From Capsulimonadaceae bacterium (GTDB taxonomy: Bacteria; Armatimonadota; Armatimonadia; Armatimonadales; Capsulimonadaceae): 64,000 nucleotides of DNA. A program made the position numbers and the translations under genes. The stretch is taken from positions 1,600,001 through 1,664,000 of the forward strand of contig OZ244065.1 in NCBI GenBank assembly GCA_965215505.1, written 5' to 3'. Of this stretch, positions 3,360 to 64,000 are shown piece after piece (position 1 is the stretch's first letter; each line of letters opens with the position of its first letter). The notes beneath the pieces are model-generated. The model worked only from the letters and a program-made list of their open reading frames with translations. It was not told the origin of the DNA and did not search any database.

Positions 3360-4979
3360 ATGATTGACCAATACACCAAAGACACTGCCCACCTGCTGCG
3401 ACGCGCGACCTTCGGCGTGGACGCGGCGGCCATCCGCGCCGCCTCCCAGGCCGGCCTGGCCGCCACCACCGACGCCCTGCTCCACCCGGAGCGGACGCCG
3501 GACACGCTGGACGACGACGGGCTGCTGAACCGGCTCGCCTCCCTGCTGCCGCTCCCCAAGAACGCGGGCATCCCGACCCAGGCCGTCCGGATGTGGTGGG
3601 CGCACCGCATGGTCGCCACGCGCAACCCGCTCGTCGAGAAGATGACCCTGTTCTGGCACGGGCATTTTACCTCCAACGACGGCGGGGCGCAAGGCGAGTT
3701 CCTGTACAAGCAGAACCAGATGCTCCGCCGGAACGCCCTGGGCAGCTTCCGGACGCTCACCCTCGCCGTCGCCCGTGACCCCGAGATGATGCGCTACCTC
3801 AACGGCAACCAGAACTACAAGGCGCATCCCAACGAGAACTTCGCCCGTGAGCTGATGGAGCTGTTCACCTGTGGCATCGGCCACTACACCGAGGACGACG
3901 TCAAGGCCGCCGCCCGCGCCTTCTCGGGCTGGAACCTGCGCGCCGGGGAGTTCGCCTTCAACGTCAACCAGCACGACAACGACCCCAAAACATTCATGGG
4001 AAAGACCGGCAACTGGAACGGGGATGACATCGTGGACATCCTCGTCGCCCACCCCGCCACCGCCAACCGGCTCTGCACCCAGCTCTGGGCCTACTTCGCC
4101 TACCCGGACCCGGAGCCGGAAGTATTGGCCGCCCTGGTCAAAACCTACTACGCCAGCGGCTACGACATCCGCGCCATCCTGGACCAGCTCTTCCGGTCGC
4201 GCGCCTTCTACTCGGACCGCGCACGCTTCGCGGTCATCAAGTCGCCCGCACAGTACGTCATCGGCACGGTCAAGATGCTGGGGCTGGACAAGGCCGTCGA
4301 GCTGGCCCTGCCCGACATCACGCCCGCAAACGATATGGCCGCCACGCGCGCCGCACAGGCCGCGCCAACCGGGTCCGGCCAGCCCGCGCCGCTGCTCACG
4401 ACGCCCGCCGCCACCCCGCAGCTCGCGGCGGGCCGGCGGATCGCCATCCTGGCCGGTCTGCCGACCGCCATGCGCTCCATGGGGCAGAACCTGTTCGCCC
4501 CGCCGAGCGTCAAGGGCTGGGACGGCGGCACGGCCTGGATCAATACCTCCACGCTGATGTCCCGCGTCTCGTTCGCCAACACCATCTCGTTCTCGCGCGT
4601 CCTGTTCGGCGGCCAGACCGCCCGGCTGACCGACTACGTCCAGCAAAACAACCTGACTCCCGAAGGCTGGGTGGACTTCCTGGCCGACGCCCTCGGCCCG
4701 CTCCCCCTGTCGCCCGCCACGCGGCAGACGATGATCGAGTACGTCCAGGGCACCGACGCCCCCGCCCCGGCTGCTCGGAACGTGGACTTTGTGCCCGGCC
4801 AGTTCGTCGCGCCGCCCCCGGCCGCCGCCCCCGGCGTCCCCGGCCCCTACCGGCGCGGGATGCGGGCCAATGGCCGCGGCTACAACCGGCTCCAGGGCAT
4901 GGCCTACCCCGGACTCGAAGGACGCCTGCGCGGCGTCATCCCGCTCCTCATGGCGACGCCCGAATTCCAGGTCTGCTGA
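3360..4979 (+). CDS. DUF1800 family protein
   Basis: HLLRRATFG, EKMTLFWHGHF, PNENFARELMELFTCG, PPSVKGW motifs. Confidence 0.92.
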   Translation: MIDQYTKDTAHLLRRATFGVDAAAIRAASQAGLAATTDALLHPERTPDTLDDDGLLNRLASLLPLPKNAGIPTQAVRMWWAHRMVATRNPLVEKMTLFWHGHFTSNDGGAQGEFLYKQNQMLRRNALGSFRTLTLAVARDPEMMRYLNGNQNYKAHPNENFARELMELFTCGIGHYTEDDVKAAARAFSGWNLRAGEFAFNVNQHDNDPKTFMGKTGNWNGDDIVDILVAHPATANRLCTQLWAYFAYPDPEPEVLAALVKTYYASGYDIRAILDQLFRSRAFYSDRARFAVIKSPAQYVIGTVKMLGLDKAVELALPDITPANDMAATRAAQAAPTGSGQPAPLLTTPAATPQLAAGRRIAILAGLPTAMRSMGQNLFAPPSVKGWDGGTAWINTSTLMSRVSFANTISFSRVLFGGQTARLTDYVQQNNLTPEGWVDFLADALGPLPLSPATRQTMIEYVQGTDAPAPAARNVDFVPGQFVAPPPAAAPGVPGPYRRGMRANGRGYNRLQGMAYPGLEGRLRGVIPLLMATPEFQVC

Positions 4980-5027
4980 GTCCTCAGCCCTGCCGCACTG
5001 TCTCCCGTTTTCCGAAAGGCAAAGAAC

Positions 5028-6266
5028 ATGAACGTCACACGCAGAGATTTCCTGAAGAAGAGCGCGACCACCGTCGCCGTCGGGCTGGCCGTCCCGCCCT
5101 GGCTCGCCAAAATGGTCTGGGCCGACTCGGTCACCGACAATGCCCTGGGTGCCGGCGGCAATACCGCCAAGCGCTCCCTCGTCGTCATCCAGCTCACCGG
5201 CGGCAATGACGGCCTGAACACCGTCGTGCCCTATGCCGATGCCGCCTACCACAAGGCCCGGCCCGTCCTCGCCCATGCCGACGGCAAGGTGCTGCACCTC
5301 AACGACCACGTCGGCCTCAGCCCCGTCATGACCGGCATGAAGGCCCTCTACGACCAGGGCCGACTCGCCATCATCCAGGGCGTCGGCTACCCGAACCCCA
5401 ACCATAGCCACTTCCGCTCCATGGAGATCTGGCAGACCGCCGAACCCGAGAAGATTGCCCAGGAAGGCTGGGTCGGACGCTACCTCGACGCCATCCGGTC
5501 GGGCCGCACCTCGCCTCTCACCGGCATCAACATCGGCAACGAGGCCAGCGAAGCCTTCACCAGCGCCCACGCCGCCGTGCCCAGCATCCAGGGCCTGGCG
5601 AACTTCGGCTTCGTCTTCCCGCACAACGCCGACGGCGACGCCCACACCGCCGCCTTGAAGAAGGTCCAGATGGGCGACTCCAATACCCCGTATGGCCGCT
5701 TCTTCCAGGAGACCGCCCAGGAGACCTACGACAGCGCCGACCAGATCTCGGCGGGCATCAAGAAGTACCATTCCACCGTCCAGTACCCCGCCACCCCCTT
5801 CGGGCGCGGGATGCAGGAGATCGCCCAGCTCATCGCGGCGGGGCTGGGGACGCGCGTCTTCTACATCTCGACCGGCAGCTTCGACACCCACGCCCAGCAG
5901 ATCCGCCGCCACGACACGCTCTGGAAGGACGTTTCGGACACGCTGGCTGCCTTCCAGTCCGACCTGGAGCAGATGAACGCGGGCGACGACGTCCTCACCC
6001 TCGCCTTCTCCGAGTTCGGCCGCCGCGTCCACGAGAACGCGAACGGCGGCACCGATCACGGCACCGCCTCGGAGATGTTCCTGCTCGGCAAGCCCGTCAA
6101 GGGCGGCCTCTACGGCTCCTACCCCAGCCTGAGCGACCTCGACGCCGGTGACCTGAAGTACACCACCGACTTCCGCTCCGTCTACGCCACCGTGCTCGAC
6201 CGCTGGCTCGGCACCAACAGCGAGATCGTCCTGGGCAAACGCTACGAAGACCTGAAGTTCATCTAG
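5028..6266 (+). CDS. DUF1501 family protein, Tat-exported
   Basis: TRRDFLK signal; GGNDGLN, SHFRS, FDTH, SEFGRR, GTDHG; usual partner of DUF1800. Confidence 0.92.
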   Translation: MNVTRRDFLKKSATTVAVGLAVPPWLAKMVWADSVTDNALGAGGNTAKRSLVVIQLTGGNDGLNTVVPYADAAYHKARPVLAHADGKVLHLNDHVGLSPVMTGMKALYDQGRLAIIQGVGYPNPNHSHFRSMEIWQTAEPEKIAQEGWVGRYLDAIRSGRTSPLTGINIGNEASEAFTSAHAAVPSIQGLANFGFVFPHNADGDAHTAALKKVQMGDSNTPYGRFFQETAQETYDSADQISAGIKKYHSTVQYPATPFGRGMQEIAQLIAAGLGTRVFYISTGSFDTHAQQIRRHDTLWKDVSDTLAAFQSDLEQMNAGDDVLTLAFSEFGRRVHENANGGTDHGTASEMFLLGKPVKGGLYGSYPSLSDLDAGDLKYTTDFRSVYATVLDRWLGTNSEIVLGKRYEDLKFI

Positions 6267-6286
6267 CCTCTCGGACGGCACACGCC

Positions 6287-6326
6287 GAACGCCCGCCGCG
6301 AATGCGGCGGGCGTTCTTGTTGTCAA
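6287..6326 (+). terminator. terminator-like hairpin, left copy of island-flanking direct repeat
   Basis: GAACGCCCGCCGC-gaat-GCGGCGGGCGTTC then TTGTTGTCAA; near-identical to 9827-9865. Confidence 0.8.
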
Positions 6327-6419
6327 CGATGGTTTGCTATACTATAGCCGCTCACGTTCGCCCGCACATGGAAACCGTTCCGGGCTTCTTCCGTGGCTTT
6401 TGTGTTTTCGCGGTTTCTT

Positions 6420-6428
6420 TGGTATAAT
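6420..6428 (+). promoter_or_regulatory. extended -10 promoter upstream of cassette array
   Basis: TGGTATAAT matches TGnTATAAT. Confidence 0.55.
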
Positions 6429-6627
6429 GTCTCCGAAGGCAGCAAGCGGCTAATCATAGCGCAGACATTCATCACTACAGCAGTACTGTTGCTAGAAACT
6501 TCTGTTGCTAAGATGCGGCAATAGCCGCTGTTATCTCGTAGTACATCGTAGTCACGCGCGGTACAGTAACAAGTTGGGCCGCTCGGCGGAAGCGTTGGCA
6601 GCGTCAGGTGTCATAAGAAAAACAAAA

Positions 6628-7227
6628 ATGTTGAACCCTGTTTGTATCCAATGCAAGAAGCCACTAACTCCAGGAAGCAACTTTTGTCCTCATTGTGGCT
6701 TGGCTTTTAATCAGCCTGTGCCGATTGTTGATGAAAAAAACGGGATCAGGAAAAAGTGGCATCCAAGAATCAAAGTGTTTGTCACGCTTGCCTCTGTGTT
6801 CCTAATTCTTTTTCTTTTCTTGCTACCCTATGGTCTAAACGCCAAAAATAAAGCGGATAAGTTGGCCGCGATTATGAATCCGATAGTTGAGCAAATTAAC
6901 TCCAACAAAATGCAAGGCGAGATCGCCGACGGCCAACGTATTGATGCTGATTCTGTTGAATGGCCTTATCATGGTCATGTGACTGAAATAAGAGTTGTAT
7001 TAGAGCCACTTTGGGATAAGCCCGTTGAATATGGGGGCGAGTCTAAGGAATGGCTTGAAAGGCGATGGTCAGGCTGCTTCGTATCTTGGTGTCTTCAAGC
7101 TGGCTATTCTGATGCTGAGGCTAATACGGTCACTATCCACTTTGAGGATAAAGCAGGAAACAATCTTGGAGACATTAGCCCCGTAGATTTTATGAGAAGG
7201 GATGGCATTGCTGGGCCTGGAAGTTAA
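6628..7227 (+). CDS. zinc-ribbon membrane protein (cassette)
   Basis: CIQC...CPHCG ribbon, one TM helix, then soluble domain; ATG 6628. Confidence 0.75.
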   Translation: MLNPVCIQCKKPLTPGSNFCPHCGLAFNQPVPIVDEKNGIRKKWHPRIKVFVTLASVFLILFLFLLPYGLNAKNKADKLAAIMNPIVEQINSNKMQGEIADGQRIDADSVEWPYHGHVTEIRVVLEPLWDKPVEYGGESKEWLERRWSGCFVSWCLQAGYSDAEANTVTIHFEDKAGNNLGDISPVDFMRRDGIAGPGS

Positions 7228-7289
7228 CCTCACGCTCTCCACTGATGTGGAACATCGTCGGTAAGTGGTCGTTCAGAAAGAGGTGCTTT

Positions 7290-7715
7290 ATGATTGATGA
7301 AACTGAAAAAGAATTATTGGTAGCCGCGTATGAGGGGAAAAGTAGTAGCTACCAAGTAGTCTACTCTGTAGGGTTTGATAGCCCTGCCGTTGAGAAGAGG
7401 TATTCTGAAGCGATCAACGACTTACAAGCAAAAGATTTGATGGACGTGCAGCATGTCTATTCATCTAACACCACGGCTCGGCCTCAGCAAAGTATTTGTT
7501 GCTTAACTCGTCAAGGGGTGAGTTATGTCGAAGAGAACAATCTTGTAGCTGATAGTGTCGCCTCAGAACACCAGAAAGCTAGACTGTTGATACAAGAAAT
7601 GGAAGATGCGGAAAAGGTAGGAGACACCAGCCGAAAAACCAACTTGAATACATCGTTTCAGCAACTTAGTCCTGCAATCCAAGCAGATGCAAAACAATAT
7701 CAACATCTAAAATAA
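7290..7715 (+). CDS. hypothetical protein, possible winged-helix N-terminus (cassette)
   Basis: RBS AGAGGTG before ATG 7290; AINDLQAKDLM...LTRQGVSYVE resembles a wHTH wing. Confidence 0.6.
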   Translation: MIDETEKELLVAAYEGKSSSYQVVYSVGFDSPAVEKRYSEAINDLQAKDLMDVQHVYSSNTTARPQQSICCLTRQGVSYVEENNLVADSVASEHQKARLLIQEMEDAEKVGDTSRKTNLNTSFQQLSPAIQADAKQYQHLK

Positions 7716-7744
7716 AGACAGCAACGAACGGCTTTGCGCGAGCG

Positions 7745-7839
7745 GCCCAACAATGCGCTGCACCTGATGCCGCCGCCAGTGCCTATTCTATATCGGCTGC
7801 TTGTGCAGGCGGTGCCGCAGGTGAGCGTTGCCATTAGGC
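7745..7839 (+). other. attC-like recombination site 1
   Basis: GCCCAAC-AATGCGCTGCACCTG...CAGGTGAGCG-TTGCC-ATTAGGC; right core has A instead of G. Confidence 0.8.
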
Positions 7840-7903
7840 CGCTGGGTCGGCGCATTCCTATCTAATCCACCATTTAGAGCAACTTCGTATAAGGAGGCTA
7901 AAT

Positions 7904-8362
7904 TTGCAAAAAGATTTTATAGTCAAACTGTTGACAAGTTTCGGCAACGGGCTTGAGAAGATTACAGTGAAACAGGGCACATCTCTCCGACAAGTGTTGG
8001 AAACGTTTGAATTAGTGACATTTGAAGAGTATTTGATGAAGGTTAGTGGTGAAGTAGTAGATCAAGACTACTTGCTACAGCCAGACGATTATGTTGTTAT
8101 AACCCCCCGTAAGGTTGAGGGTGCAGCTCCAACCTGCGAACTTCGCAAACTGAAGAAATACTTGAAAGACTTAGGATGGGTTCAAGAAGCTGGAACAGTT
8201 GGCGACCATGAAAACTGGCGAAGCCCAGAGGGCTTACTGTTGCAATTAAATCCTGCTAAACTGGATAGCAAGGTTGCTGATTTAGCATCCCATAAAAAGT
8301 GTGCGACGATTTTAGGCATAAACTTCCAAACTTTATACGAAACTGTAGCAAGTCACAGGTAA
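7904..8362 (+). CDS. ThiS/MoaD-like ubiquitin-fold domain fused to HicA-like toxin domain (cassette)
   Basis: RBS TAAGGAGG, TTG start; aa 1-74 beta-grasp-like ending KVEGA; aa about 78-152 LKKYLKDLGW...GDHENWRSP...ILGI. Confidence 0.65.
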   Translation: MQKDFIVKLLTSFGNGLEKITVKQGTSLRQVLETFELVTFEEYLMKVSGEVVDQDYLLQPDDYVVITPRKVEGAAPTCELRKLKKYLKDLGWVQEAGTVGDHENWRSPEGLLLQLNPAKLDSKVADLASHKKCATILGINFQTLYETVASHR

Positions 8363-8385
8363 AGCCGAAGCCTTTTCAGCCAGTA

Positions 8386-8482
8386 GCCCAGTAATGTGCT
8401 GCACCTGACGCCGCCGATGCCTTGTGCTTTGCGAGGCCAGGTGCTTTGCGTGCGGTATCGCCGGTGAGTGCCGCCGTCGGGC
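8386..8482 (+). other. attC-like recombination site 2 (degenerate)
   Basis: GCCCAGT-AATGTGCTGCACCTGACGCCGCCG...CCGGTGAGTG-CCGCC-GTCGGGC; homologous to site 1. Confidence 0.7.
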
Positions 8483-8542
8483 TGCTTGCATGCACAGATT
8501 GTTGCTCGTGTAATTCTCACCCTCTCTACAGTCTGGGTCAAA

Positions 8543-9556
8543 ATGGCATATTCAGGTCATGATGAAATTGAATTAGGTTCCTTACAAGAACAACTAAAAC
8601 AATTAGTAGCAGAGCGTAGAGATAATCTAAATGGCAACATGGCATTTAGCTTTGGATATGATCCCACTGTTGCGGCTATTGAACAACAAATAAATGTAGT
8701 TCAAGCAAGAATTAACAGCATTTTTGACAGAGTAACTTCCCAATCTGAAGGAAGCAAGAATTCACATAAGGTTGTAATATATGATGAGGAGTGCGAAGAG
8801 TACACGCATTTTGAGGTTGGGGATATTGTCAGTAGTAATTCTGGTAACTATTACGCTGTAAACCGCGAGGCAGCACTTGGACCTATTCTAGAGAAGTGTC
8901 AAGTAGGCCAAACGATAAGTCTTGGCTTGGTCGTTTCCGTCGATGATAGTCCTTTGTTGCCAAAACATGAGCATGAAGCAGCCAAACTAAAATATGCAGA
9001 GGCCAAAGAATTAGTCAGATTGGCAGCGGAAAGACATGCGAGACAACTTATTCTTGCAGAAGAATTAGAGCGACAACAACGCCAAAAGTTACACGCTGAG
9101 AATGAGGCGAAGGCGAGGCGTCAGCGGCATATAGAGCAGGAACAAAGGCGACAGAAAGAGAAAAAGCATCAGCAAGAGATAGAAAGGCAACTGTCTGAAG
9201 CTAGAGAGGTGCCTTACATTACGATAGATGAAGCAAAATCACGTCTGCAAGAAATCAGAACCAAATACCACACAGGTAATGCGGATAAGTCAGCTACTAT
9301 ACATGATCTATCGGTTTTACAAATAAGGTGCCAGAAAAGCTTCGCGGCAGCTTCTTCTCATCAGAGTGATTCATCAGGTGCAGGAGCAATCATAGGGGGA
9401 CTGATTGGCTTCATTGGCGGCCCGATAGGAGCCATGATTGGGGCAGGCATCGGAGCTGCCCTTGGCAGTACCGGTAAGGAAGCCTCAGAGAAAGACAGTT
9501 GGGGTCGCCCGATGCGGAATTTAGAAGCGTTCTTGGAGAAGCTATCCAATCGATGA
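8543..9556 (+). CDS. GreA/GreB-like N-terminal region + coiled coil + glycine zipper (cassette)
   Basis: KVVIYDEECEEYTHFEVG...VNREAALGPILEKCQVGQTI resembles the Gre C-terminal domain; E/Q/R-rich helix; GAIIGGLIGFIGGPIGAMIGAGIGAALG. Confidence 0.6.
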   Translation: MAYSGHDEIELGSLQEQLKQLVAERRDNLNGNMAFSFGYDPTVAAIEQQINVVQARINSIFDRVTSQSEGSKNSHKVVIYDEECEEYTHFEVGDIVSSNSGNYYAVNREAALGPILEKCQVGQTISLGLVVSVDDSPLLPKHEHEAAKLKYAEAKELVRLAAERHARQLILAEELERQQRQKLHAENEAKARRQRHIEQEQRRQKEKKHQQEIERQLSEAREVPYITIDEAKSRLQEIRTKYHTGNADKSATIHDLSVLQIRCQKSFAAASSHQSDSSGAGAIIGGLIGFIGGPIGAMIGAGIGAALGSTGKEASEKDSWGRPMRNLEAFLEKLSNR

Positions 9557-9583
9557 GCTGACGCACTTGATGTACAACAACTG

Positions 9584-9610
9584 GTCCAGCAAAGCGTTGC
9601 ACCCGACGCC
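9584..9610 (+). other. truncated attC-like site 3 (left arm only)
   Basis: GTCCAGC-AAAGCGTTGCACCCGACGCC aligns to left arms of sites 1 and 2, 27 bp after the stop. Confidence 0.55.
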
Positions 9611-9826
9611 ATCCGCGTCTTTATCTCTACTGGAACAATGCTCAAGAAGCCTACCTTAAGACAACGCGCCAGCCGAACATCATCCGGTGACAGCGATGAC
9701 ACGAACTTACGAGCCGGAGGAGTCCGAGGCAGACACGGACGAGGAGCGCCCCATTGCTGTTCTCGCGGAGAGGCGGCGGCAGTTCCTCTCGATGTTGAAC
9801 GCGCGGGAGCCTCAGTCAGATCAATA

Positions 9827-9865
9827 GAACGCCCGACGCATCTGCGGCGGGCGTTCTGCTGTCAA
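9827..9865 (+). terminator. terminator-like hairpin, right copy of island-flanking direct repeat
   Basis: GAACGCCCGACGCA-tc-TGCGGCGGGCGTTC-TGCTGTCAA. Confidence 0.75.
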
Positions 9866-10147
9866 AGGCAGTGCATATCGGGTATAATGGTAGACAAGTA
9901 AGTCATCCCAGGCAGGTACGGGCAGGGAGACGCTAACGCAGCAAACACAAAAAATGCGAGAACGAACTGGCGGCGGAGAGCGCAAGGGGACGCGGAAAAT
10001 CGTTGTTATGCAAATTTGTCGAAACGAACTCCCCGCGCACTCTGCTCCACCACCTTTCGCAGCACCCAGGGCGAGGGCTTATGGAGGGGAGGCACAGGGG
10101 CCTCCCCCTACGCGCCCCTGGAGTTCCCGCCAGGCATTCTGTCACGG

Positions 10148-10290
10148 GTAGGGGCAACCCCCTGTGGTTGCCCTCCGTTGTGGTTGCCCTCCGTTGTGGT
10201 TGCCCTCCGTTGTGGTTGCCCTCCGTTGTGGTTGCCCTCCGTTGTGGTTGCCCTCCGTTGTGGTTGCCCTCCGTTGTGGTTGCCCTCCGT
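10148..10290. repeat. GTAG-type REP hairpin with right arm expanded to 8 x 16-bp tandem repeat
   Basis: GTAGGGGCAACCCCC followed by (TGTGGTTGCCCTCCGT)x8 at 10163-10290, no spacers. Confidence 0.9.
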
Positions 10291-10385
10291 AGGCAGTCGC
10301 ACCGCAGCACCCCCTATGTCTACGGCGGGCGTTCTCGTTGTGGTACAATGCCACCATCAAGTCTCGGCATCGCAGGAGGTGTGGA

Positions 10386-21500: not shown

Positions 21501-22100
21501 CTGTTCGACTTCGGGCGCGGCCACGGGGTCCGCGAATGCTTCCAGGTCGGGGCCGGCGACGGCCTCGATGACAGGCTCGGCAATGGGTTCAGCAGCAGCC
21601 TCTACGATGACGGGTTCAGCCTCGGCTTCCATGACAGGCTGGTCCGCTCCTACGGTCATAGGCTCGACGGCCACCATGAGAGGGGCCTCTTCCTCGTACA
21701 CTTCTTCTGCCGGGGCTTCCTCGTCGGTACGGAGGTTGAAATCCTCCCGTGCGGCGCGCAGGGGGCTGGCGAGCGGGGCCGGCTCGTCGGCCAGCATCCG
21801 GGCCATCACGGTGTCTTCAAACGGGTCGTCCTCGGCGAACGGGTCGGAGGCGTCGTCCAGTTGGGCGATCTGGGACGGGGCGGGGAAGTTGCCGACGGGG
21901 ACATCGGCGGGGTGGCGGGCGTCCAGGTCCACCTCATCGCCGCCGAAGAGGGCACCGCCGATGTCGGCGGGTGCGGCCTGTGCCGCCGGGGCCGGCGCGG
22001 CGGCCTTGCGCGCGGCGCGCGGCGGGGCCGGCTCCTCATCACCCATCAGGTCCAGGGTCGTCCCGGACGTACTCTTTTTCCCGTTGCTTCGCTCTGCCAT
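18543..22100 (-). CDS. nrdJ: vitamin B12-dependent (class II) ribonucleotide reductase with long acidic N-terminal extension and C-terminal TSCPD/Zn ribbon
   Basis: FNSPVWFN, SAC, SNPCSE, ACNLSSLNL, APTGTI, GIEPD, YRDGSK, CPECG..CISCG; RBS GAAGGAG before ATG 22100. Confidence 0.95.
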   Translation of the reverse strand: MAERSNGKKSTSGTTLDLMGDEEPAPPRAARKAAAPAPAAQAAPADIGGALFGGDEVDLDARHPADVPVGNFPAPSQIAQLDDASDPFAEDDPFEDTVMARMLADEPAPLASPLRAAREDFNLRTDEEAPAEEVYEEEAPLMVAVEPMTVGADQPVMEAEAEPVIVEAAAEPIAEPVIEAVAGPDLEAFADPVAAPEVEQRLETEQEPMPPVSPAPAAKTAPKAPAAPKNGTAKTAKTNSPGLSIPRRYTQAGQDVWASVQWELRNASIVGSDGAVVFEQNGVEIPKEWSQLATNVVVSKYFRGQIGTLEREYSVKQLIGRVADRILEWGKQGSYFATEADAEAFHDELRFILLHQYAAFNSPVWFNLGWASRRQAVSACYINEVDDTMESILDLYKTEGMLFKDGSGSGLNLSTLRSSKEPLEAGGRSSGPISFMKGLDASAGSIKSGGSTRRAACMRVLNIDHPDVKEFIDCKKDAELKAHALIDAGYSGAFNVAGGAYDTVPFQNANHSVRVTDEFMQAVEADATWDTKFRMSGKTAETFRAKDLLHSIAEGTWVCGDPGMQYDTTANDWHTCANTDRIHASNPCSEFFFLNSTACNLSSLNLMKFRQEGTAAFDTDSFDHAVRIMITAQEIVVGFASYPTDKIERRSHEFRPLGLGYANLGALLMAAGLPYDSDAGRAYAGAVTALMTGRAYHQSALVARDCGGPFAGFAENREPMLRVMHKHRDHVDQINAALIPDTLLDAARTAWDEALEEGEASGYRNAQSTVLAPTGTIGFLMDCDTTGIEPDIAIVKYKSLVGGGMMKIVNQTVPEALQRLGYDEAQVEGIIKFIDEHDTIEGAPDLDPEHLPIFDCAFRPMNGTRSIHYRGHIKMMAAAQPFISGAISKTVNVPNDATPDDIAETYMEAWKLGIKAVAIYRDGSKRTQPLNTSKEAPAEKKAMQTAEAAPLATPKAVRRRLPDERAGLTHKFSIGGHEGYLTVGLYPDTNQPGEIFIRMSKEGSSISGLMDSFATAISLALQYGVPLSTLVDKFIHSRFEPSGFTGNKEIPMAKSVMDYIFRYLALRFLQKEDRHNVGLIADQDDPAYAAAPAKLPAPPPPAAHDAKSGSLSNGSGNGKNGNSSGSKASDLFHLADTNTAAIADHEREIYRMQSDAPPCPECGAITIRNGACYRCISCGTSLGCS

Positions 22101-22237
22101 ACTGTCTCCTTCTAATTTTTCTGTCCTTGCTGTACCGTTGCATCTTCCGCTGAAGCATTTGTGGTACGTCATGCCGCATAGACACGCACGACGCCCAGAA
22201 TACCTTAACCGAAAATGTCTCGGCGAACAGGAAAAGA

Positions 22238-22435
22238 CTATCGCTTTTTGTTGCCAGTTTCCACTGTAGCCTGTGAGTTGCTTATTTCCACTCTCTTCCC
22301 ATCTGGTGTCGGCTTCGGCAGATTGGGCGGATGAGGCGGCACCCAATTTCTGCCTGCATCTGCATCAGTCATGCTGTAAAATTCGCCGTTCAAGGTTTCA
22401 TCTGCTACAATGGCGGCTTCATCCTTAGATGCCAT
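22238..22435 (-). CDS. motif peptide 4 (65 aa, ADAGRNWVPP)
   Basis: ATG 22435 with AAGGAAG upstream; shares motif with three upstream peptides. Confidence 0.75.
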   Translation of the reverse strand: MASKDEAAIVADETLNGEFYSMTDADAGRNWVPPHPPNLPKPTPDGKRVEISNSQATVETGNKKR

Positions 22436-22442
22436 GAGGCTT

Positions 22443-22601
22443 TCACTTCCTTTTATCCTTGCCATCTTCCGGTGACTTCACTGTGGACGGTTTAGGTGGC
22501 GATGGTGGGGTCCATGCTCGACCAGGATCGCCTTGTGTGTCATCGTGTTCACCTGGCGGAACGTCGTTTGTTAGGATAATGCTCTCGGTATCATCAGGCA
22601 T
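22443..22601 (-). CDS. motif peptide 3 (52 aa, GDPGRAWTPP); not in ORF track
   Basis: Manual translation MPDDTESIILTNDVPPGEHDDTQGDPGRAWTPPSPPKPSTVKSPEDGKDKRK. Confidence 0.78.
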   Translation of the reverse strand: MPDDTESIILTNDVPPGEHDDTQGDPGRAWTPPSPPKPSTVKSPEDGKDKRK

Positions 22602-22607
22602 GATATA

Positions 22608-22787
22608 CTACTTTCGGCCGCCGCCGTGGTCTTTAGATGGCGGCGGGGGAATAGGTTTCTGAGGTGCTGGAGGTGCATTCCAGTTCCGGCCTGGATCTCC
22701 TGAGTATCTATCCAATACTGGATCAGGCTGAGGCTGTGGCATCGGCAAGTTGCGCGGTTCTGGAATGTCATTGCTCACGCTGGTCAT
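22608..22787 (-). CDS. motif peptide 2 (59 aa, GDPGRNWNAP); not in ORF track
   Basis: Manual translation MTSVSNDIPEPRNLPMPQPQPDPVLDRYSGDPGRNWNAPPAPQKPIPPPPSKDHGGGRK; ATGA overlap with peptide 1 stop. Confidence 0.78.
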   Translation of the reverse strand: MTSVSNDIPEPRNLPMPQPQPDPVLDRYSGDPGRNWNAPPAPQKPIPPPPSKDHGGGRK

Positions 22788-22984
22788 GATTTACTATCTG
22801 GTGTGCTGTTGCTACCACCGCTGTTTGTGCTTCCACTTGACTGAGAGGCAGTCGTGTCTGCTTGGGGGGCAGATGGCGTGGGTTTGGAAGGAGCTTTCCA
22901 GCCCCGGCCCGGATCACCTTTGATGGAATCACGCTTATCCGGGCTAACCATCTTTTCCATCGTCATGTTTTTGTCTGATGCCAT
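22784..22984 (-). CDS. motif peptide 1 (66 aa, GDPGRGWKAP)
   Basis: RBS TAGGAG; starts 12 nt after 3-TM gene stop. Confidence 0.78.
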   Translation of the reverse strand: MASDKNMTMEKMVSPDKRDSIKGDPGRGWKAPSKPTPSAPQADTTASQSSGSTNSGGSNSTPDSKS

Positions 22985-22996
22985 TCGTGTTTGCTC

Positions 22997-23743
22997 CTAT
23001 CGTATGTTCATAACCGCGAAGGTGACGATTAATCCCAAGCCAACGATGAATGCTATGGTTGCCGTGAGGTTGAGGGCTTCTGTCAATTTACGGAATGTTT
23101 CCCGCTTTCTAGTGTAGCACTCCGACTTCTTAGTAAAATTTTCTTGTTCACCGTCATCTTTGGACAAAGAACTGTCTTTGTTCGATCTCGCGGCTTCTAC
23201 TGAGTAGGATAAGCTCTTCCGGGAAGCGAAGTATGATACGAGGACGAACACAACTGTCAGGCCTAATGAACCCCAACCTCCACGAAGATACCATAAGTCT
23301 TTAAGTGAGTGCTTGTTGCTGAGAAGCGTACCGATGAACGTCGCGGATAATGCCAAGATGCCACTACTTATGGTCAACAGCAAATTGTCAGCTTTTTCGT
23401 AACTAGCTGCAATCAGTTTCTCTTGCTGTTCCTCATACTTGTCGAAGGAGGCGGATGTGTTCTCCCTAAACTTTTCCCACTCCTTCTCTGCACTATCTTC
23501 TACGCTTCCGGAGGTTGCAGAAGGCGTGATAATTATGGAGGGGACAGTTATACTTATTGTCGCACTGCCAAATGAGAACTGCACATCGCTTGGAAGCCCG
23601 GCAGGGGCAACTTGTGCAGTTGGTGCCGCAAGACCTGAATGTACCTTTCCTTGTGTCGCCTCTACTTTTCGAGGTACAACATTCTGCGGATGATGATTGG
23701 CCGCGCCTGACTCCACCTTTTCACTCTGAAGATCAGTTTTCAA
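22997..23743 (-). CDS. hypothetical 3-TM membrane protein, AT-rich
   Basis: Hydrophobic segments LLLTISSGILALSATFIG, WGSLGLTVVFVLVSYFA, LNLTATIAFIVGLGLIVTFAV; start codon uncertain. Confidence 0.75.
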   Translation of the reverse strand: MKTDLQSEKVESGAANHHPQNVVPRKVEATQGKVHSGLAAPTAQVAPAGLPSDVQFSFGSATISITVPSIIITPSATSGSVEDSAEKEWEKFRENTSASFDKYEEQQEKLIAASYEKADNLLLTISSGILALSATFIGTLLSNKHSLKDLWYLRGGWGSLGLTVVFVLVSYFASRKSLSYSVEAARSNKDSSLSKDDGEQENFTKKSECYTRKRETFRKLTEALNLTATIAFIVGLGLIVTFAVMNIR

Positions 23744-23771
23744 TCTACTGCCCTCTGTCAGACAAACCCGG

Positions 23772-24260
23772 TCACTCTTTTCGCAGGCGACCGCCCTGCT
23801 TCTTCAGCAGGTTCACGATGTCGCGGAACTGGGTGGCGTCCTCGAACTGGCGGTACACGGACGCGAAGCGCACATAGGCGACCTGGTCGATGCGGCGCAG
23901 GTTCTCCATGACCATCTCGCCGATCTCGGACGACGGGACCTCTTTGTCCAAGCGGTTGGTCAGGGTCCGCTCGATGTCGTCGGAGATGGTCTGCAAAGTT
24001 TCCTCGGAGATCGGGCGCTTCTGGCAGGCCACGCGCAGGGAGCGCAGCAGCTTGTTCCGGTCGAACGGCTCGCGGCGCTGGTGGCCGTCGCGGTCGGGCT
24101 TCTTGACGACGGTGAGCTGCATCTCCTCGATGGTTTCAAACGTGGTGAAGCGCCGCTCGCAGTGCTTGCACTCGCGTCGCCTCTTGATGGCCTCGCCGTC
24201 GCGCATCGGGCGCGAGTCCAGCACGGCGTCGTTGTCATGGCCGCAGTACGGGCACTTCAC
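23772..24260 (-). CDS. nrdR: transcriptional repressor NrdR
   Basis: MKCPYCG..DSR..RRRECxxCxxRFTTFE, ATP cone, VAYVRFASVYRQF. Confidence 0.97.
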   Translation of the reverse strand: MKCPYCGHDNDAVLDSRPMRDGEAIKRRRECKHCERRFTTFETIEEMQLTVVKKPDRDGHQRREPFDRNKLLRSLRVACQKRPISEETLQTISDDIERTLTNRLDKEVPSSEIGEMVMENLRRIDQVAYVRFASVYRQFEDATQFRDIVNLLKKQGGRLRKE

Positions 24261-62322: not shown

Positions 62323-63228
62323 CTACTGCCAGTTCCCGACGCCGACGCCGGGAGCGTTCGGCCCGCCCATGTTGCAGTAGTCGTTGGTGTCATTCGCCAT
62401 GCGCTGCTCTGGGTCAATGGACTTGGTCCAGGGGAGGGTGGAACAGATGGTCAGGTTGCCGTTCGGGTCCTTCACAGTGATGGCTTTGGCATGGCCGTCA
62501 CAGTAGGCGACGACGCATTTGCCACTGTAGAAGGGCGTCCCGCTCGTGTGCTGGCCCCAGCCGCCATAGGAGGTGCCCGCCACGAGGAACGTCTGATAGC
62601 CCGAGAGTGATTCCTCCAAGTGCCACTTGCTCCTAGGGGAAGTGCTGCCGGTCCAGTCAGGTGGGAGAGCAGCCCCGTTCGCTTTGTCCCAGCCGCCATG
62701 CCCTTCAATCAGCATCACGCAGTCCGAGGGCGAGTTGATTGAACCGATTGATGCAGCAGTCTGCAACTGGACCTGATTGGTCACATCGGCGAAACCGGCC
62801 GCCGTCGTGCTCATATGGTGGCTCAGGATGTCGTTCATCAGCAGGCTGCAATTGCCATTGTCTGGGTTGAAGTCATTGCCGGTGGCGGAAGTCGCGTTGC
62901 CCGCAGTGCTAGAGTCGCTGAGTGAGAGGAAGATGCCGGCGCTTTTGTGGAAGGGTGCGGTGGCGTCCTGCCATTCACCAACGCCATTGGTATTGCCTGG
63001 CTTATCGCCCCAGCCGCACCGGGGCAGCTTCTCGTCCGCATCCTGCACATACTGCATGATCGCGATGCCTTCCTGCTTGGCGTTGCTAACTCCTTGAGTT
63101 CGCCGAGCGTTCTCACGAACTTTGGCGAATACGGGGAAGAGAATAGCCGCCAATATCGCTATTATAGCGATGACGACAAGAAGTTCGATGAGCGTGAAGC
63201 CGCTCCGATTTTGTCCTGTCTGTTTCAT
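62323..63228 (-). CDS. prepilin-type N-terminal cleavage/methylation protein (DUF1559-like)
   Basis: [31 protein letters not shown]-terminal YCDGHAK. Confidence 0.92.
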
Positions 63229-63237
63229 CTTTGTCTC

Positions 63238-63540
63238 CTAGTTCTTGATGCCATCGAATGCGGCCTTGCTGTGTCCGCCGGTCATCTGATTGGCCTTCTG
63301 GATTTCCTCATCGGTCAGCTTGCTGTAGTCGCCGTGCGTCCGGTCGTACAGCCCTTCGATGTAGTCGTGGTTGGTCTTCGCCACGCCGGTCGGTGGGAGG
63401 ATCGGCGGTGGGCTGAAGCTCTTCTGGTAAAGCCAGCCCATGAAAAAGAGCAGGAGGACACCGGCCACGATGATGAGCGGTAGGCCAACGTTTCTCTTCT
63501 CTTTCTGCTCGGGCTTCTTGGTGCCGGGATGGATAGCCAT
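63238..63540 (-). CDS. small single-TM hypothetical protein
   Basis: RBS GAAAGGA, one TM, operonic with prepilin-type gene. Confidence 0.7.
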   Translation of the reverse strand: MAIHPGTKKPEQKEKRNVGLPLIIVAGVLLLFFMGWLYQKSFSPPPILPPTGVAKTNHDYIEGLYDRTHGDYSKLTDEEIQKANQMTGGHSKAAFDGIKN

Positions 63541-63808
63541 TGATTCGTTGTTTCCTTTCTGCATCTGAAGTCCGCGATTGTAGCGACTACTATGAGTCGA
63601 CTGTGGCTAGGCCGCAGGACAGACCAAAATGGTCTGTCCTGCGTTCCAGCAAGAGGTCTTGCCTTCGTGCTGGCTACGGCACTACCATGGTCTGTGTTGC
63701 GTACCAGTTCACTTTGTCCCAATTAGAACTATTGGCACCATCGTAGTAGTTGATTGTGCCATTCCCTGTGAATGTCACAAAACGATTTCCCGTCGTCAGT
63801 GGGTACGC

Positions 63809-64000
63809 TCAGGCGACCGTTATGATGGTCGGATTGTTTGGGTCATTCGAGAGTACAGGCGCATAGACCTCAAGCGCCGGTTTGTTGTGATTGTTGACGT
63901 TATCGACATAGAGCTGAACATGGATTGTTATGTTCGCAGCCTTGGGAAAGGTGGTCCAGTATCCGCCAGTCATCGTTGCGATGGCAGCCGGATTGCCATT
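63809..64000 (-). CDS. 3' end of a gene entering from the right edge (partial)
   Basis: Open frame NGNPAAIATMTGGYW...NNPTIITVA ending TGA at 63809-63811. Confidence 0.55.
   Translation of the reverse strand, partial: NGNPAAIATMTGGYWTTFPKAANITIHVQLYVDNVNNHNKPALEVYAPVLSNDPNNPTIITVA

Follow-up and report, generated by a model that had tools for sequence, protein, structure and literature searches.

The 64,000-nucleotide stretch of DNA analysed here (the window; Capsulimonadaceae bacterium, assembly GCA_965215505.1, contig OZ244065.1, forward strand, positions 1,600,001-1,664,000) contains a gene of 152 codons at 7904-8362 (plus strand) that joins an N-terminal ubiquitin-like (Ubl) domain to a C-terminal HicA-like ribonuclease domain, and which we refer to as Ubl-HicA. 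HicA toxins normally have a separate antitoxin gene, hicB. The reading we prefer, and to which we would give an even chance, is that Ubl-HicA is a single-chain, self-restrained toxin module in which a conjugation-type Ubl stands in place of HicB. In such a module the C-terminal half would be a HicA-type ribonuclease resembling double-stranded RNA-binding domains, and the N-terminal Ubl, descended from the Ubls of operons that also encode E2-like, JAB and E1 proteins, would restrain it in cis as an antitoxin-like domain or a sensor, with the preserved tail at the junction (…TPRKVE-G73-AA…) as the control point. Release would most simply come about by proteolytic cleavage separating the two halves or, alternatively, through a phage or host protein that binds the Ubl in the manner of CapRel. 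The gene would travel as a single-gene, integron-type cassette and might serve in abortive-infection defence or in stabilisation of the cassette array.

Two domains in one gene

The open reading frame (ORF) lies exactly where a first-pass annotation of the sequence had placed it, with a TTG start and a stop codon at 8360-8362, and all of the peptide stretches quoted there are present in the protein, the N-terminal part of which ends in ITPRKVEGAAPT. A Shine-Dalgarno sequence (AAGGAGG, 7891-7897, plus strand) can be read 6 nt before the start. A longer ORF or another start was considered and rejected, as alignments with the homologues begin at residue 3-7 and the TTG is suitably placed for the Shine-Dalgarno sequence. 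The ORF is a real gene and no chance ORF, given its homologues found by phmmer and a confident structural model: AlphaFold2, when supplied with an alignment of the family (A1, below), gave a mean pLDDT of 93 and a pTM of 0.70, compared with 59 and 0.45 without the alignment. A promoter scan at the locus found sites no more numerous than in shuffled sequences, and Rfam gave no match in the window between 6000 and 11000.

A word-indexed search returned two close relatives of the protein, at 61 % and 74 % identity, and phmmer against 1.84 billion cluster representatives returned 48 matches at E<=1e-3 and 12 at <=1e-10 (best 3.2e-47). The phmmer matches are of three kinds, namely proteins of ~140-170 amino acids (aa) that span both halves, shorter forms of the C-terminal half that often retain the last strand of the N-terminal half, and tandem proteins made up of two or three copies of the N-domain alone. 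Alignment A1 comprises 35 relatives of the first two kinds; the tandem-repeat proteins were left out, as were P0038 (406 aa, repeat-rich), P0040 (886 aa, surface-protein-like) and the longer or truncated forms P0008, P0032 and P0050. The fusion recurs, with Ubl and HicA-like domain standing together in 22 of the 35 aligned relatives, these being the rows with a full N-domain (at least 45 residues before position 62).

The N-terminal domain comprises residues 1-73 (7904-8122). Its resemblance to ThiS/MoaD, claimed in the first-pass annotation, is weak for the single sequence (Pfam ThiS E 0.11 over aa 18-66; NCBIfam ThiS 0.11; SAMP2 0.33 by phmmer against PDB sequences), so that support at the level of the family is needed. 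This is provided by the A1 profile, which matches SAMP2 (0.0041) and P. furiosus PF1061 (0.0069) among PDB sequences, by the Pfam families ThiS, Ub-Mut7C and TGS, detected in 9, 5 and 4 of the 35 members, respectively, and by the predicted fold. In the model, residues 4-68 run strand-strand-helix-strand-strand (strands 4-11, 17-23, 43-47 and 63-68; helix 28-33), and a Foldseek search of the PDB with the whole model gave 87 matches at E<=1e-3, led, bar a few long alignments of high rmsd, by SUMO, ubiquitin, MoaD and ISG15 (E ~1e-4; target-normalised TM 0.62-0.70 over ~75-84 columns). Ubiquitin-like proteins were also matched in the viral library BFVD. Model and profiles together point to a beta-grasp domain with ThiS/ubiquitin homology, and the earlier resemblance can be considered solid at the family level. 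The possibility that the N-domain is a diverged HicB was rejected: hhalign of A1 against 45 DUF1902/HicB neighbours of canonical hicA genes gave 0.43 %, and the order of strands and helices is that of a beta-grasp and not the beta-beta-beta-alpha-beta described for HicB (Gerdes 2024, PMC10865869).

The C-terminal domain, residues 76-152 (8129-8359), is predicted to fold as alpha-beta-beta-beta-alpha (helix 80-89, strands 93-95, 103-106 and 112-115, helix 127-137) with an extra helix at 141-149. Taken alone, the protein scores 14.6 bits against Pfam HicA_toxin (PF07927; cut-off 27 bits, E 0.035, aa 81-110), a family that is matched by 31 of the 35 A1 members (best 1.3e-8), and the A1 profile reaches T. 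thermophilus 1whz (0.032) and S. pneumoniae HicA 5yrz_B (0.041) among PDB sequences. For comparison, at least 67 canonical HicA loci were collected from species-representative genomes by the loop motif of one subfamily. Sixteen of these HicAs, all of which match Pfam HicA_toxin (best 3.1e-18), form alignment A6, and hhalign aligned A1 with A6 over aa 77-140 at 98.85 % (E 4e-17), a match that is favoured by the choice of A6 through a motif shared with part of A1. An upstream ORF of ~75-100 aa on the same strand was picked by a simple motif at 45 of the 67 listed loci, and DUF1902 was found in 43 and HicB_lk_antitox in 7 of these ORFs. Since the motif-picked upstream ORFs are mostly DUF1902 proteins, the nearest ordinary relatives of the C-domain, among the matches listed, are probably the toxins of small hicBA pairs.

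The assignment to HicA is further supported by the loop in which the first-pass annotation had read G-D-H102 in place of a GSH motif. This loop, G100-D101-H102 (8201-8209; context T-V-G100-D101-H102-E-N-W), corresponds to Gly22-Ser23-His24 in B. pseudomallei HicA. D101, H102 and N116 are present in 35 of 35 A1 rows, G100 in 33, D126 in 34 and A134 in 32. The B. pseudomallei protein loses its toxicity through G22C or H24A but keeps it with S23A (PMC3969222), so the change from Ser to Asp is no argument against activity. Judged by profiles and loop, then, the domain appears to be of HicA type and to retain the Gly and His on which HicA toxicity depends. The same G-D-H, rather than the usual G-S-H, occurs in many, at least, of the canonical HicAs of 64-73 aa (L008-L074), where it follows a small DUF1902-type antitoxin; the record titles name cyanobacteria, alpha- and deltaproteobacteria, Dehalococcoidia and Deinococcales.

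The ubiquitin-like tail at the junction

At the junction (aa 68-78, P-R-K-V-E-G73-A-A-P-T-C; 8105-8137) the Ubl tail, TPRKVEG-A-A, runs straight into the HicA-like domain, with P-T-C-E-L leading into the first HicA helix, and a candidate processing site lies after Gly73. Positions 75-78 (A-P-T-P in most relatives) are conserved and persist in relatives without the Ubl, which assigns them to the HicA-like half. A free C-terminal Gly-Gly, as used for adenylation by E1, is absent from the protein; the single Gly73 is followed by A-A-P-T and the fused domain.

Closely similar tails end the nearest relatives of the N-domain. Each repeat of the 11 tandem Ubl proteins among the phmmer matches ends in K-[IV]-x-G-A, all 11 proteins stop one to three residues past the last such Gly, and 9 of 10 tested pass the Pfam cut-off for ThiS. 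At a further 11 loci, from metagenomes, a single Ubl carries the tail TPRKIEG-A-A without exception; eight of these Ubls end right after the Ala pair, two have a single Cys beyond it, and one is extended by 14 residues. Because stand-alone Ubls end in the same tail, the fusion point would correspond to the natural C-terminus of a conjugation-type Ubl. At seven of the 11 metagenome loci, a gene downstream encodes a protein that combines a T-H-P-H-[VI]…C-x-G-[DE]-G motif with a Cys-rich tail; this protein looks E2-like from its motif and has no match in Pfam, NCBIfam or PADLOC. A JAB motif follows further downstream at three of the 11 loci, the other contigs ending too early. The longest locus, L077, has the gene order Ubl, E2-like protein, JAB and E1, where the JAB protein scores 24.1 bits against Prok-JAB (cut-off 25) and matches the JAB models of PADLOC, and the E1 matches ThiF at 4e-22. 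The nearest relatives of the N-domain are thus probably the stand-alone or tandem Ubls of E2-like/JAB/E1 operons.

These observations bear on what the first-pass annotation had said of the tail, namely that the protein has G-A where other Ubls have G-G and that Ubl fusions are often cleaved after a terminal Gly. The motif is indeed present, but it should rather be taken as one conserved Gly, after which comes either a short pro-sequence or a fused domain. A role for the tail is made more likely by the nearest Ubls, which end within one to three residues of this Gly and adjoin JAB and E1 genes. Linked JAB, E1 or E2 genes, for which a search near homologues had been proposed, are found at stand-alone Ubl loci such as L077 and not in the Ubl-HicA cassette.

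In eukaryotes, an N-terminal ubiquitin is fused to an unrelated small protein in the ubiquitin-ribosomal protein fusions and is released by cleavage after its terminal Gly; the likeness to Ubl-HicA is one of analogy only, as the C-terminal partners are not homologous. Within bacteria, operons with tandem Ubls, E2-like, JAB and E1 proteins have been described (Iyer et al. 2006, PMC1779556), and the N-domain matches tandem Ubls, with repeats ending in K-[IV]-x-G-A, that resemble the PolyUbl or multi-ubiquitin proteins of the '6e' operons described there; our tandem relatives are assigned to 6e/Bub by architecture alone. In BubAB of the Type I Bub (6E.1) operons, as described in PMC11601596, the C-terminal Gly of a Ubl is likewise followed by another functional domain, and this Ubl-E2 fusion was shown experimentally to be cut by the JAB domain of BubCD right after the conserved Gly. 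However, the partner there is an E2 whereas here it is a toxin-type domain, no linked JAB-E1 or BubE is found here, and the Gly is present in only 21 of the 35 A1 rows.

Two further observations concern the stand-alone Ubls. The operon of L077 (1722-4421) encodes a 73-74-aa Ubl ending in TPRKIEGAA(C), an E2-like protein of ~350 aa, a JAB protein and a short ThiF-type E1, and is preceded by a DUF2958 gene; operons of this type, apparently uncatalogued, also occur in L075, L078, L079, L082, L083 and L085. In L078 (313-672) the Ubl with tail TPRKIEGAA carries 14 additional residues starting P-H-G-D-H, an extension at the same point as the junction in Ubl-HicA.

Restraint in cis and its alternatives

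Consistent with the first-pass annotation, no hicB lies beside the gene: HicB, DUF1902 and UPF0150 have no match in the three neighbouring ORFs (Pfam, NCBIfam and PADLOC). Restraint of the HicA-like half by the Ubl in cis is favoured because a lone intact HicA without an antitoxin would otherwise be hard to maintain, because the fusion is conserved, and because fused HicBA proteins and cis-antitoxins of the CapRel/EzeT type are precedents (discussed in Gerdes 2024, PMC10865869). It is also favoured by a relative of 302 aa, P0032, encoded on a JGI contig of 19.7 kb, in which a helix-turn-helix (HTH) domain of XRE type (HTH_3, 6.5e-14, aa 62-114) precedes the Ubl-HicA unit. HicB antitoxins are described as normally consisting of a toxin-binding domain plus an HTH or a ribbon-helix-helix domain (Gerdes 2024, PMC10865869), and so, from its architecture, the HTH-Ubl-HicA chain reads like antitoxin and toxin in one polypeptide, with the Ubl in the toxin-binding position. 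A complex prediction that paired aa 1-73 (Ubl) with aa 76-152 (HicA), made with alignments, gave 0.00 in a run without controls and speaks neither way.

Several observations weigh against a self-restrained toxin. Of the 35 A1 rows, 21 have Gly at position 73, 12 have Ala, and one each has Val or Glu, with Ala in four of the five closest relatives; the residue is kept small without the near invariance that would be expected of the Gly in an E1 substrate, which weakens models in which the released Ubl is conjugated while leaving room for cleavage itself. No protease, E1 or E2 is encoded in the cassette and no ThiF or JAB in the island, the E2-like and JAB proteins of L077 have no match in the genome, and the only Prok-JAB of the genome (98 bits), 3.2 Mb away, lies within a housekeeping-looking ThiS-ThiF/PALP cluster. 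The window protein alone falls below the Pfam thresholds for both domains. No HicA structure was returned by Foldseek with the whole model (PDB and BFVD), a query that is dominated by the beta-grasp, so the HicA fold rests on the order of secondary-structure elements and on profile homology; of the two halves whose folds the first-pass annotation had proposed to check, the N-terminal one was recovered by Foldseek, and for the C-terminal one profile and strand order agree with HicA. The absence of HicB is read at this locus, the other fusions coming from short metagenome contigs. Finally, the attC-like sites around the gene are degenerate and the cassette may therefore be decaying.

Cleavage after Gly73 would be the most economical trigger, given the Ubl tail and the BubAB precedent, but we consider it unlikely, as position 73 varies between Gly and Ala and a linked protease is missing. 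The one-gene toxin proposed in the first-pass annotation is strengthened by both domain assignments, the missing HicB and the Ubl tail, and its strict version, with cleavage after the Gly, is weakened by the variation at position 73 and the lack of a linked protease. In that version, which is doubtful as it stands, the protein would be a protease-triggered zymogen whose Ubl masks HicA until a peptidase of JAB or deubiquitinase type cuts after Gly73. This peptidase could belong to the host itself or to a Ubl-conjugation system resident there, or it could be carried in by a phage as a means of disarming such systems. If true, Ubl-HicA would be a single-gene sentinel that responds to deubiquitinase-like activity by cleaving RNA, and the first prokaryotic ubiquitin-like pro-domain found to gate a toxin, directly linking Ubl systems to toxin-antitoxin biology.

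Alternatively, and with a similarly low probability, the protein could be a constitutive precursor that a host JAB-type peptidase always cuts after Gly73, as happens in BubAB, yielding a free Ubl and a free HicA that form an ordinary two-part toxin-antitoxin pair or act as a Ubl for conjugation and an effector. The position of the junction, exactly at the tail common to stand-alone and tandem Ubls, and the processing of BubAB (PMC11601596) are in line with this, as is the host Prok-JAB gene, which adjoins a ThiS-ThiF fusion itself needing such processing. That cluster (L106, 3263-6547, minus strand) consists of a PALP enzyme, a 126-aa protein of no assigned family, the Prok-JAB at 4760-5182 and a 491-aa ThiS-ThiF-rhodanese fusion, in which …I-A-G-G closes the ThiS part ahead of a linker. 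The cluster resembles a sulfur-carrier pathway with a carrier that is fused to its own E1 and would be freed by the JAB protein. As the JAB gene adjoins this fusion, processing of Ubl fusions probably exists in the organism; action of the host JAB on the cassette protein does not follow. Constitutive cleavage is further disfavoured by the replacement of Gly73 by Ala in 12 of 35 relatives, by the sulfur-carrier-type setting of a JAB whose partner Ubl ends in GG and not G-A-A, by the absence from the genome of L077-type E2-like and JAB proteins, and by the consideration that a mobile cassette cannot depend on the protease of one host.

It is rather improbable that the beta-grasp is instead an adaptor, that is, an RNA- or ribosome-binding module of TGS/S4 type or a protein-docking module that directs HicA to its substrate, in which case the protein would be a regulated RNA-processing factor or a toxin neutralised in trans. 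The matches that suggest it (TGS in four of the 35 A1 members; TGS and S4 among the tandem-Ubl relatives) are short stretches within stronger ThiS and Ub-Mut7C matches, and the nearest relatives of the N-domain are conjugation-operon Ubls and not RNA-binding proteins. Neutralisation in trans could draw on HicB-type proteins from the three ordinary hicA loci found elsewhere in the genome; however, toxin-antitoxin pairs are usually specific.

Comparison with known HicA arrangements is in line with the statement in the first-pass annotation that the architecture was not recognised. Canonical small hicBA pairs (DUF1902 and a HicA with a G-K-G-D-H-E-I-W loop) share the G-D-H loop with Ubl-HicA, and the whole HicA domain aligns, but they consist of two genes with a DUF1902 antitoxin (43 of 45 motif-picked upstream ORFs), whereas Ubl-HicA is one gene with a Ubl in the antitoxin position, three to four additional residues behind strand 3 and one more helix at the C-terminus. 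The fused HicBA proteins of Class 12, as described by Gerdes (2024, PMC10865869), are similarly monocistronic, with ~130-150 aa, a small N-domain and a C-terminal HicA, and are proposed there to be toxins regulated in cis in the manner of CapRel. Their N-domain is a small HicB with a partial RNase H fold (beta-beta-beta-alpha-beta), in contrast to the predicted beta-grasp here (beta-beta-alpha-beta-beta), which has ThiS/ubiquitin homology and reached 0.43 % against DUF1902/HicB. Neither 'ubiquitin' nor 'grasp' occurs in the text of that catalogue, the Table S1 of which may list a member; the layout thus lies outside the text of the published catalogue of HicA arrangements and draws its regulatory domain from an unexpected donor. 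No published description of the Ubl-HicA fusion was found, the nearest being a toxin-antitoxin locus beside a Ubl operon, though supplementary tables may list one.

HicA is among the most widespread toxin folds, with its known gene arrangements catalogued in 2024, and fused single-gene toxin-antitoxin modules such as CapRel serve as models for phage sensing by bacteria. To the known arrangements, the present family adds one with a Ubl in the antitoxin position, taken from bacterial E1/E2/JAB conjugation systems, the roles of which are still largely open. If the Ubl restrains the ribonuclease and the tail is the release point, these 152 residues would constitute a very small and testable system for the control of a bacterial effector by ubiquitin-like processing, and integron cassettes would be shown to transport self-contained toxin modules.

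Cassette, island and distribution

The gene lies in a foreign, low-GC island of 3.5 kb (44-52 % GC, compared with ~63-75 % for the genome), in a cassette of 643 bases (~7834-8476) that holds this one ORF. A repeat with the layout of attC sites, for which the box consensus is RYYYAAC (R'') and GTTRRRY (R'), is found between the genes of the island (7733-7775, 8374-8416 and 9572-9614). Copy A (7745-7839, plus strand; R'' GCCCAAC, R' degenerate ATTAGGC) forms the upstream border of the cassette and copy B (8386-8482, plus strand; R'' degenerate GCCCAGT, R' degenerate GTCGGGC) the downstream border, each being one base off the consensus in one or both boxes. The third copy, C, is more decayed and present as a 5' half after the next cassette (9572-9614, plus strand), and a GTTGGGC box lies ahead of the first cassette (6573-6579). 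The bottom strand of copy A folds better than shuffled sequences (z -2.27, with 4 of 200 shuffles as good), and the folding of copies B and C is no better than that of shuffles. The claim that Ubl-HicA is the only gene of its cassette therefore holds, with attC-like repeats bracketing a single ORF, though their R boxes are degenerate.

The sole further occurrence of this repeat family in the genome is a second array ~2.9 Mb away (G000:C1 ~4,523,600-4,525,100; L101 7600-9100, minus strand), where three attC sites of ~100 nt with canonical boxes (GCCYAAC … GTTGGGC or GTTGGAC), at intervals of 495 and 594 bases, lie between small ORFs in a patch of 50-59 % GC. An integron integrase (TIGR02249) was sought in the whole genome; the best score is 71.5 bits against a cut-off of 265, and none lies near the window. 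Since no integrase reaches the cut-off, both arrays appear to be integrase-less attC clusters, the one in the window being the more decayed.

No public RNA run was found to contain the locus. Public DNA contigs from four runs of one other study were compared with the window over 6000-10300. A contig of 3,658 bases covers 6197-9853 with 86 differences, and those listed within the gene are four, two synonymous and two conservative (T26A and V64I). It is very unlikely that Ubl-HicA is an inert passenger, a cassette gene decaying within a dead attC array and encoding a HicA domain that has lost its activity: degenerate attC boxes, the low integrase score and the ordinary folding of copies B and C would fit this, but the ORF is uninterrupted and has a strong Shine-Dalgarno sequence, D101 and H102 of the catalytic loop do not vary within the family, and in the independent metagenome contig the listed gene differences are synonymous or conservative.

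A terminator-like, GC-rich hairpin flanks the island on the left (6287-6317, plus strand), and a copy 87 % identical to it stands at the right end (9827-9857, plus strand); together with a few following bases, the duplicated hairpin brackets the island at 6287-6325 and 9827-9865. Forms without the island were seen with the joints 6266->9826, 6315->9775 and 6322->9732 (one contig each), and such contigs, joining both sides, suggest that the island arose by insertion next to the hairpins or is subject to recombination between them. A joint at 7777->8398, which would represent a form lacking exactly this cassette, was not counted, being found in one contig with a 24-letter side within the repeat. 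In three of the four runs, the attC core (7728-7871) is covered ~8 to 20 times as deeply as its flanks, and several contigs match the core only and diverge on both sides, as expected if the attC site is shared by many different cassettes.

Ubl-HicA fusions are rare, patchily distributed and mobile, with relatives from metagenomes only. Ten members looked up by exact sequence belong to clusters of one or two sequences and come from contigs of 665-19,714 bases held by ENA, Logan or JGI; the only names they bear are 'hypothetical protein' and 'transcriptional regulator with XRE-family HTH domain'. A profile search of 401 sampled genomes of the same phylum found the fusion in the genome of the window only (0 of 17 in the same genus), five weaker matches being plain HicA or MoaD/ThiS genes, and two other phyla gave none in 401 and none in 401 genomes at E<=1e-9, with up to nine candidates per genome scored. 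No match was found by tblastn in plasmid and phage records, and three scans of viral contigs found no fusion and at most five canonical HicAs. A loop-motif scan of species-representative genomes gave, among the matches listed, only canonical short HicAs and no fusion, a metagenome scan gave relatives of the N-domain only, and the ESM Atlas had no usable match for the protein.

The neighbours of Ubl-HicA in the island are an ORF with a zinc-ribbon match just below the cut-off (6505/6628-7227), without a HicB-type match, and the ORFs of the two adjacent cassettes, neither of which is a HicB. The upstream one (7245-7715, plus strand; 156 aa) has no family match, and the downstream one (8543-9556, plus strand; 337 aa from ATG) has a coiled region and a sub-threshold glycine-zipper match. 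To the right of the island, the window contains a perfect tandem array at 10131-10306, with ~10 copies of a 16-nt unit, TGTGGTTGCCCTCCGT, that sits within overlapping long ORFs on both strands. GC content drops to 0.51-0.54, compared with ~0.68, at 22001-24000 and 63001-64000 of the window, and these segments may be other foreign insertions.

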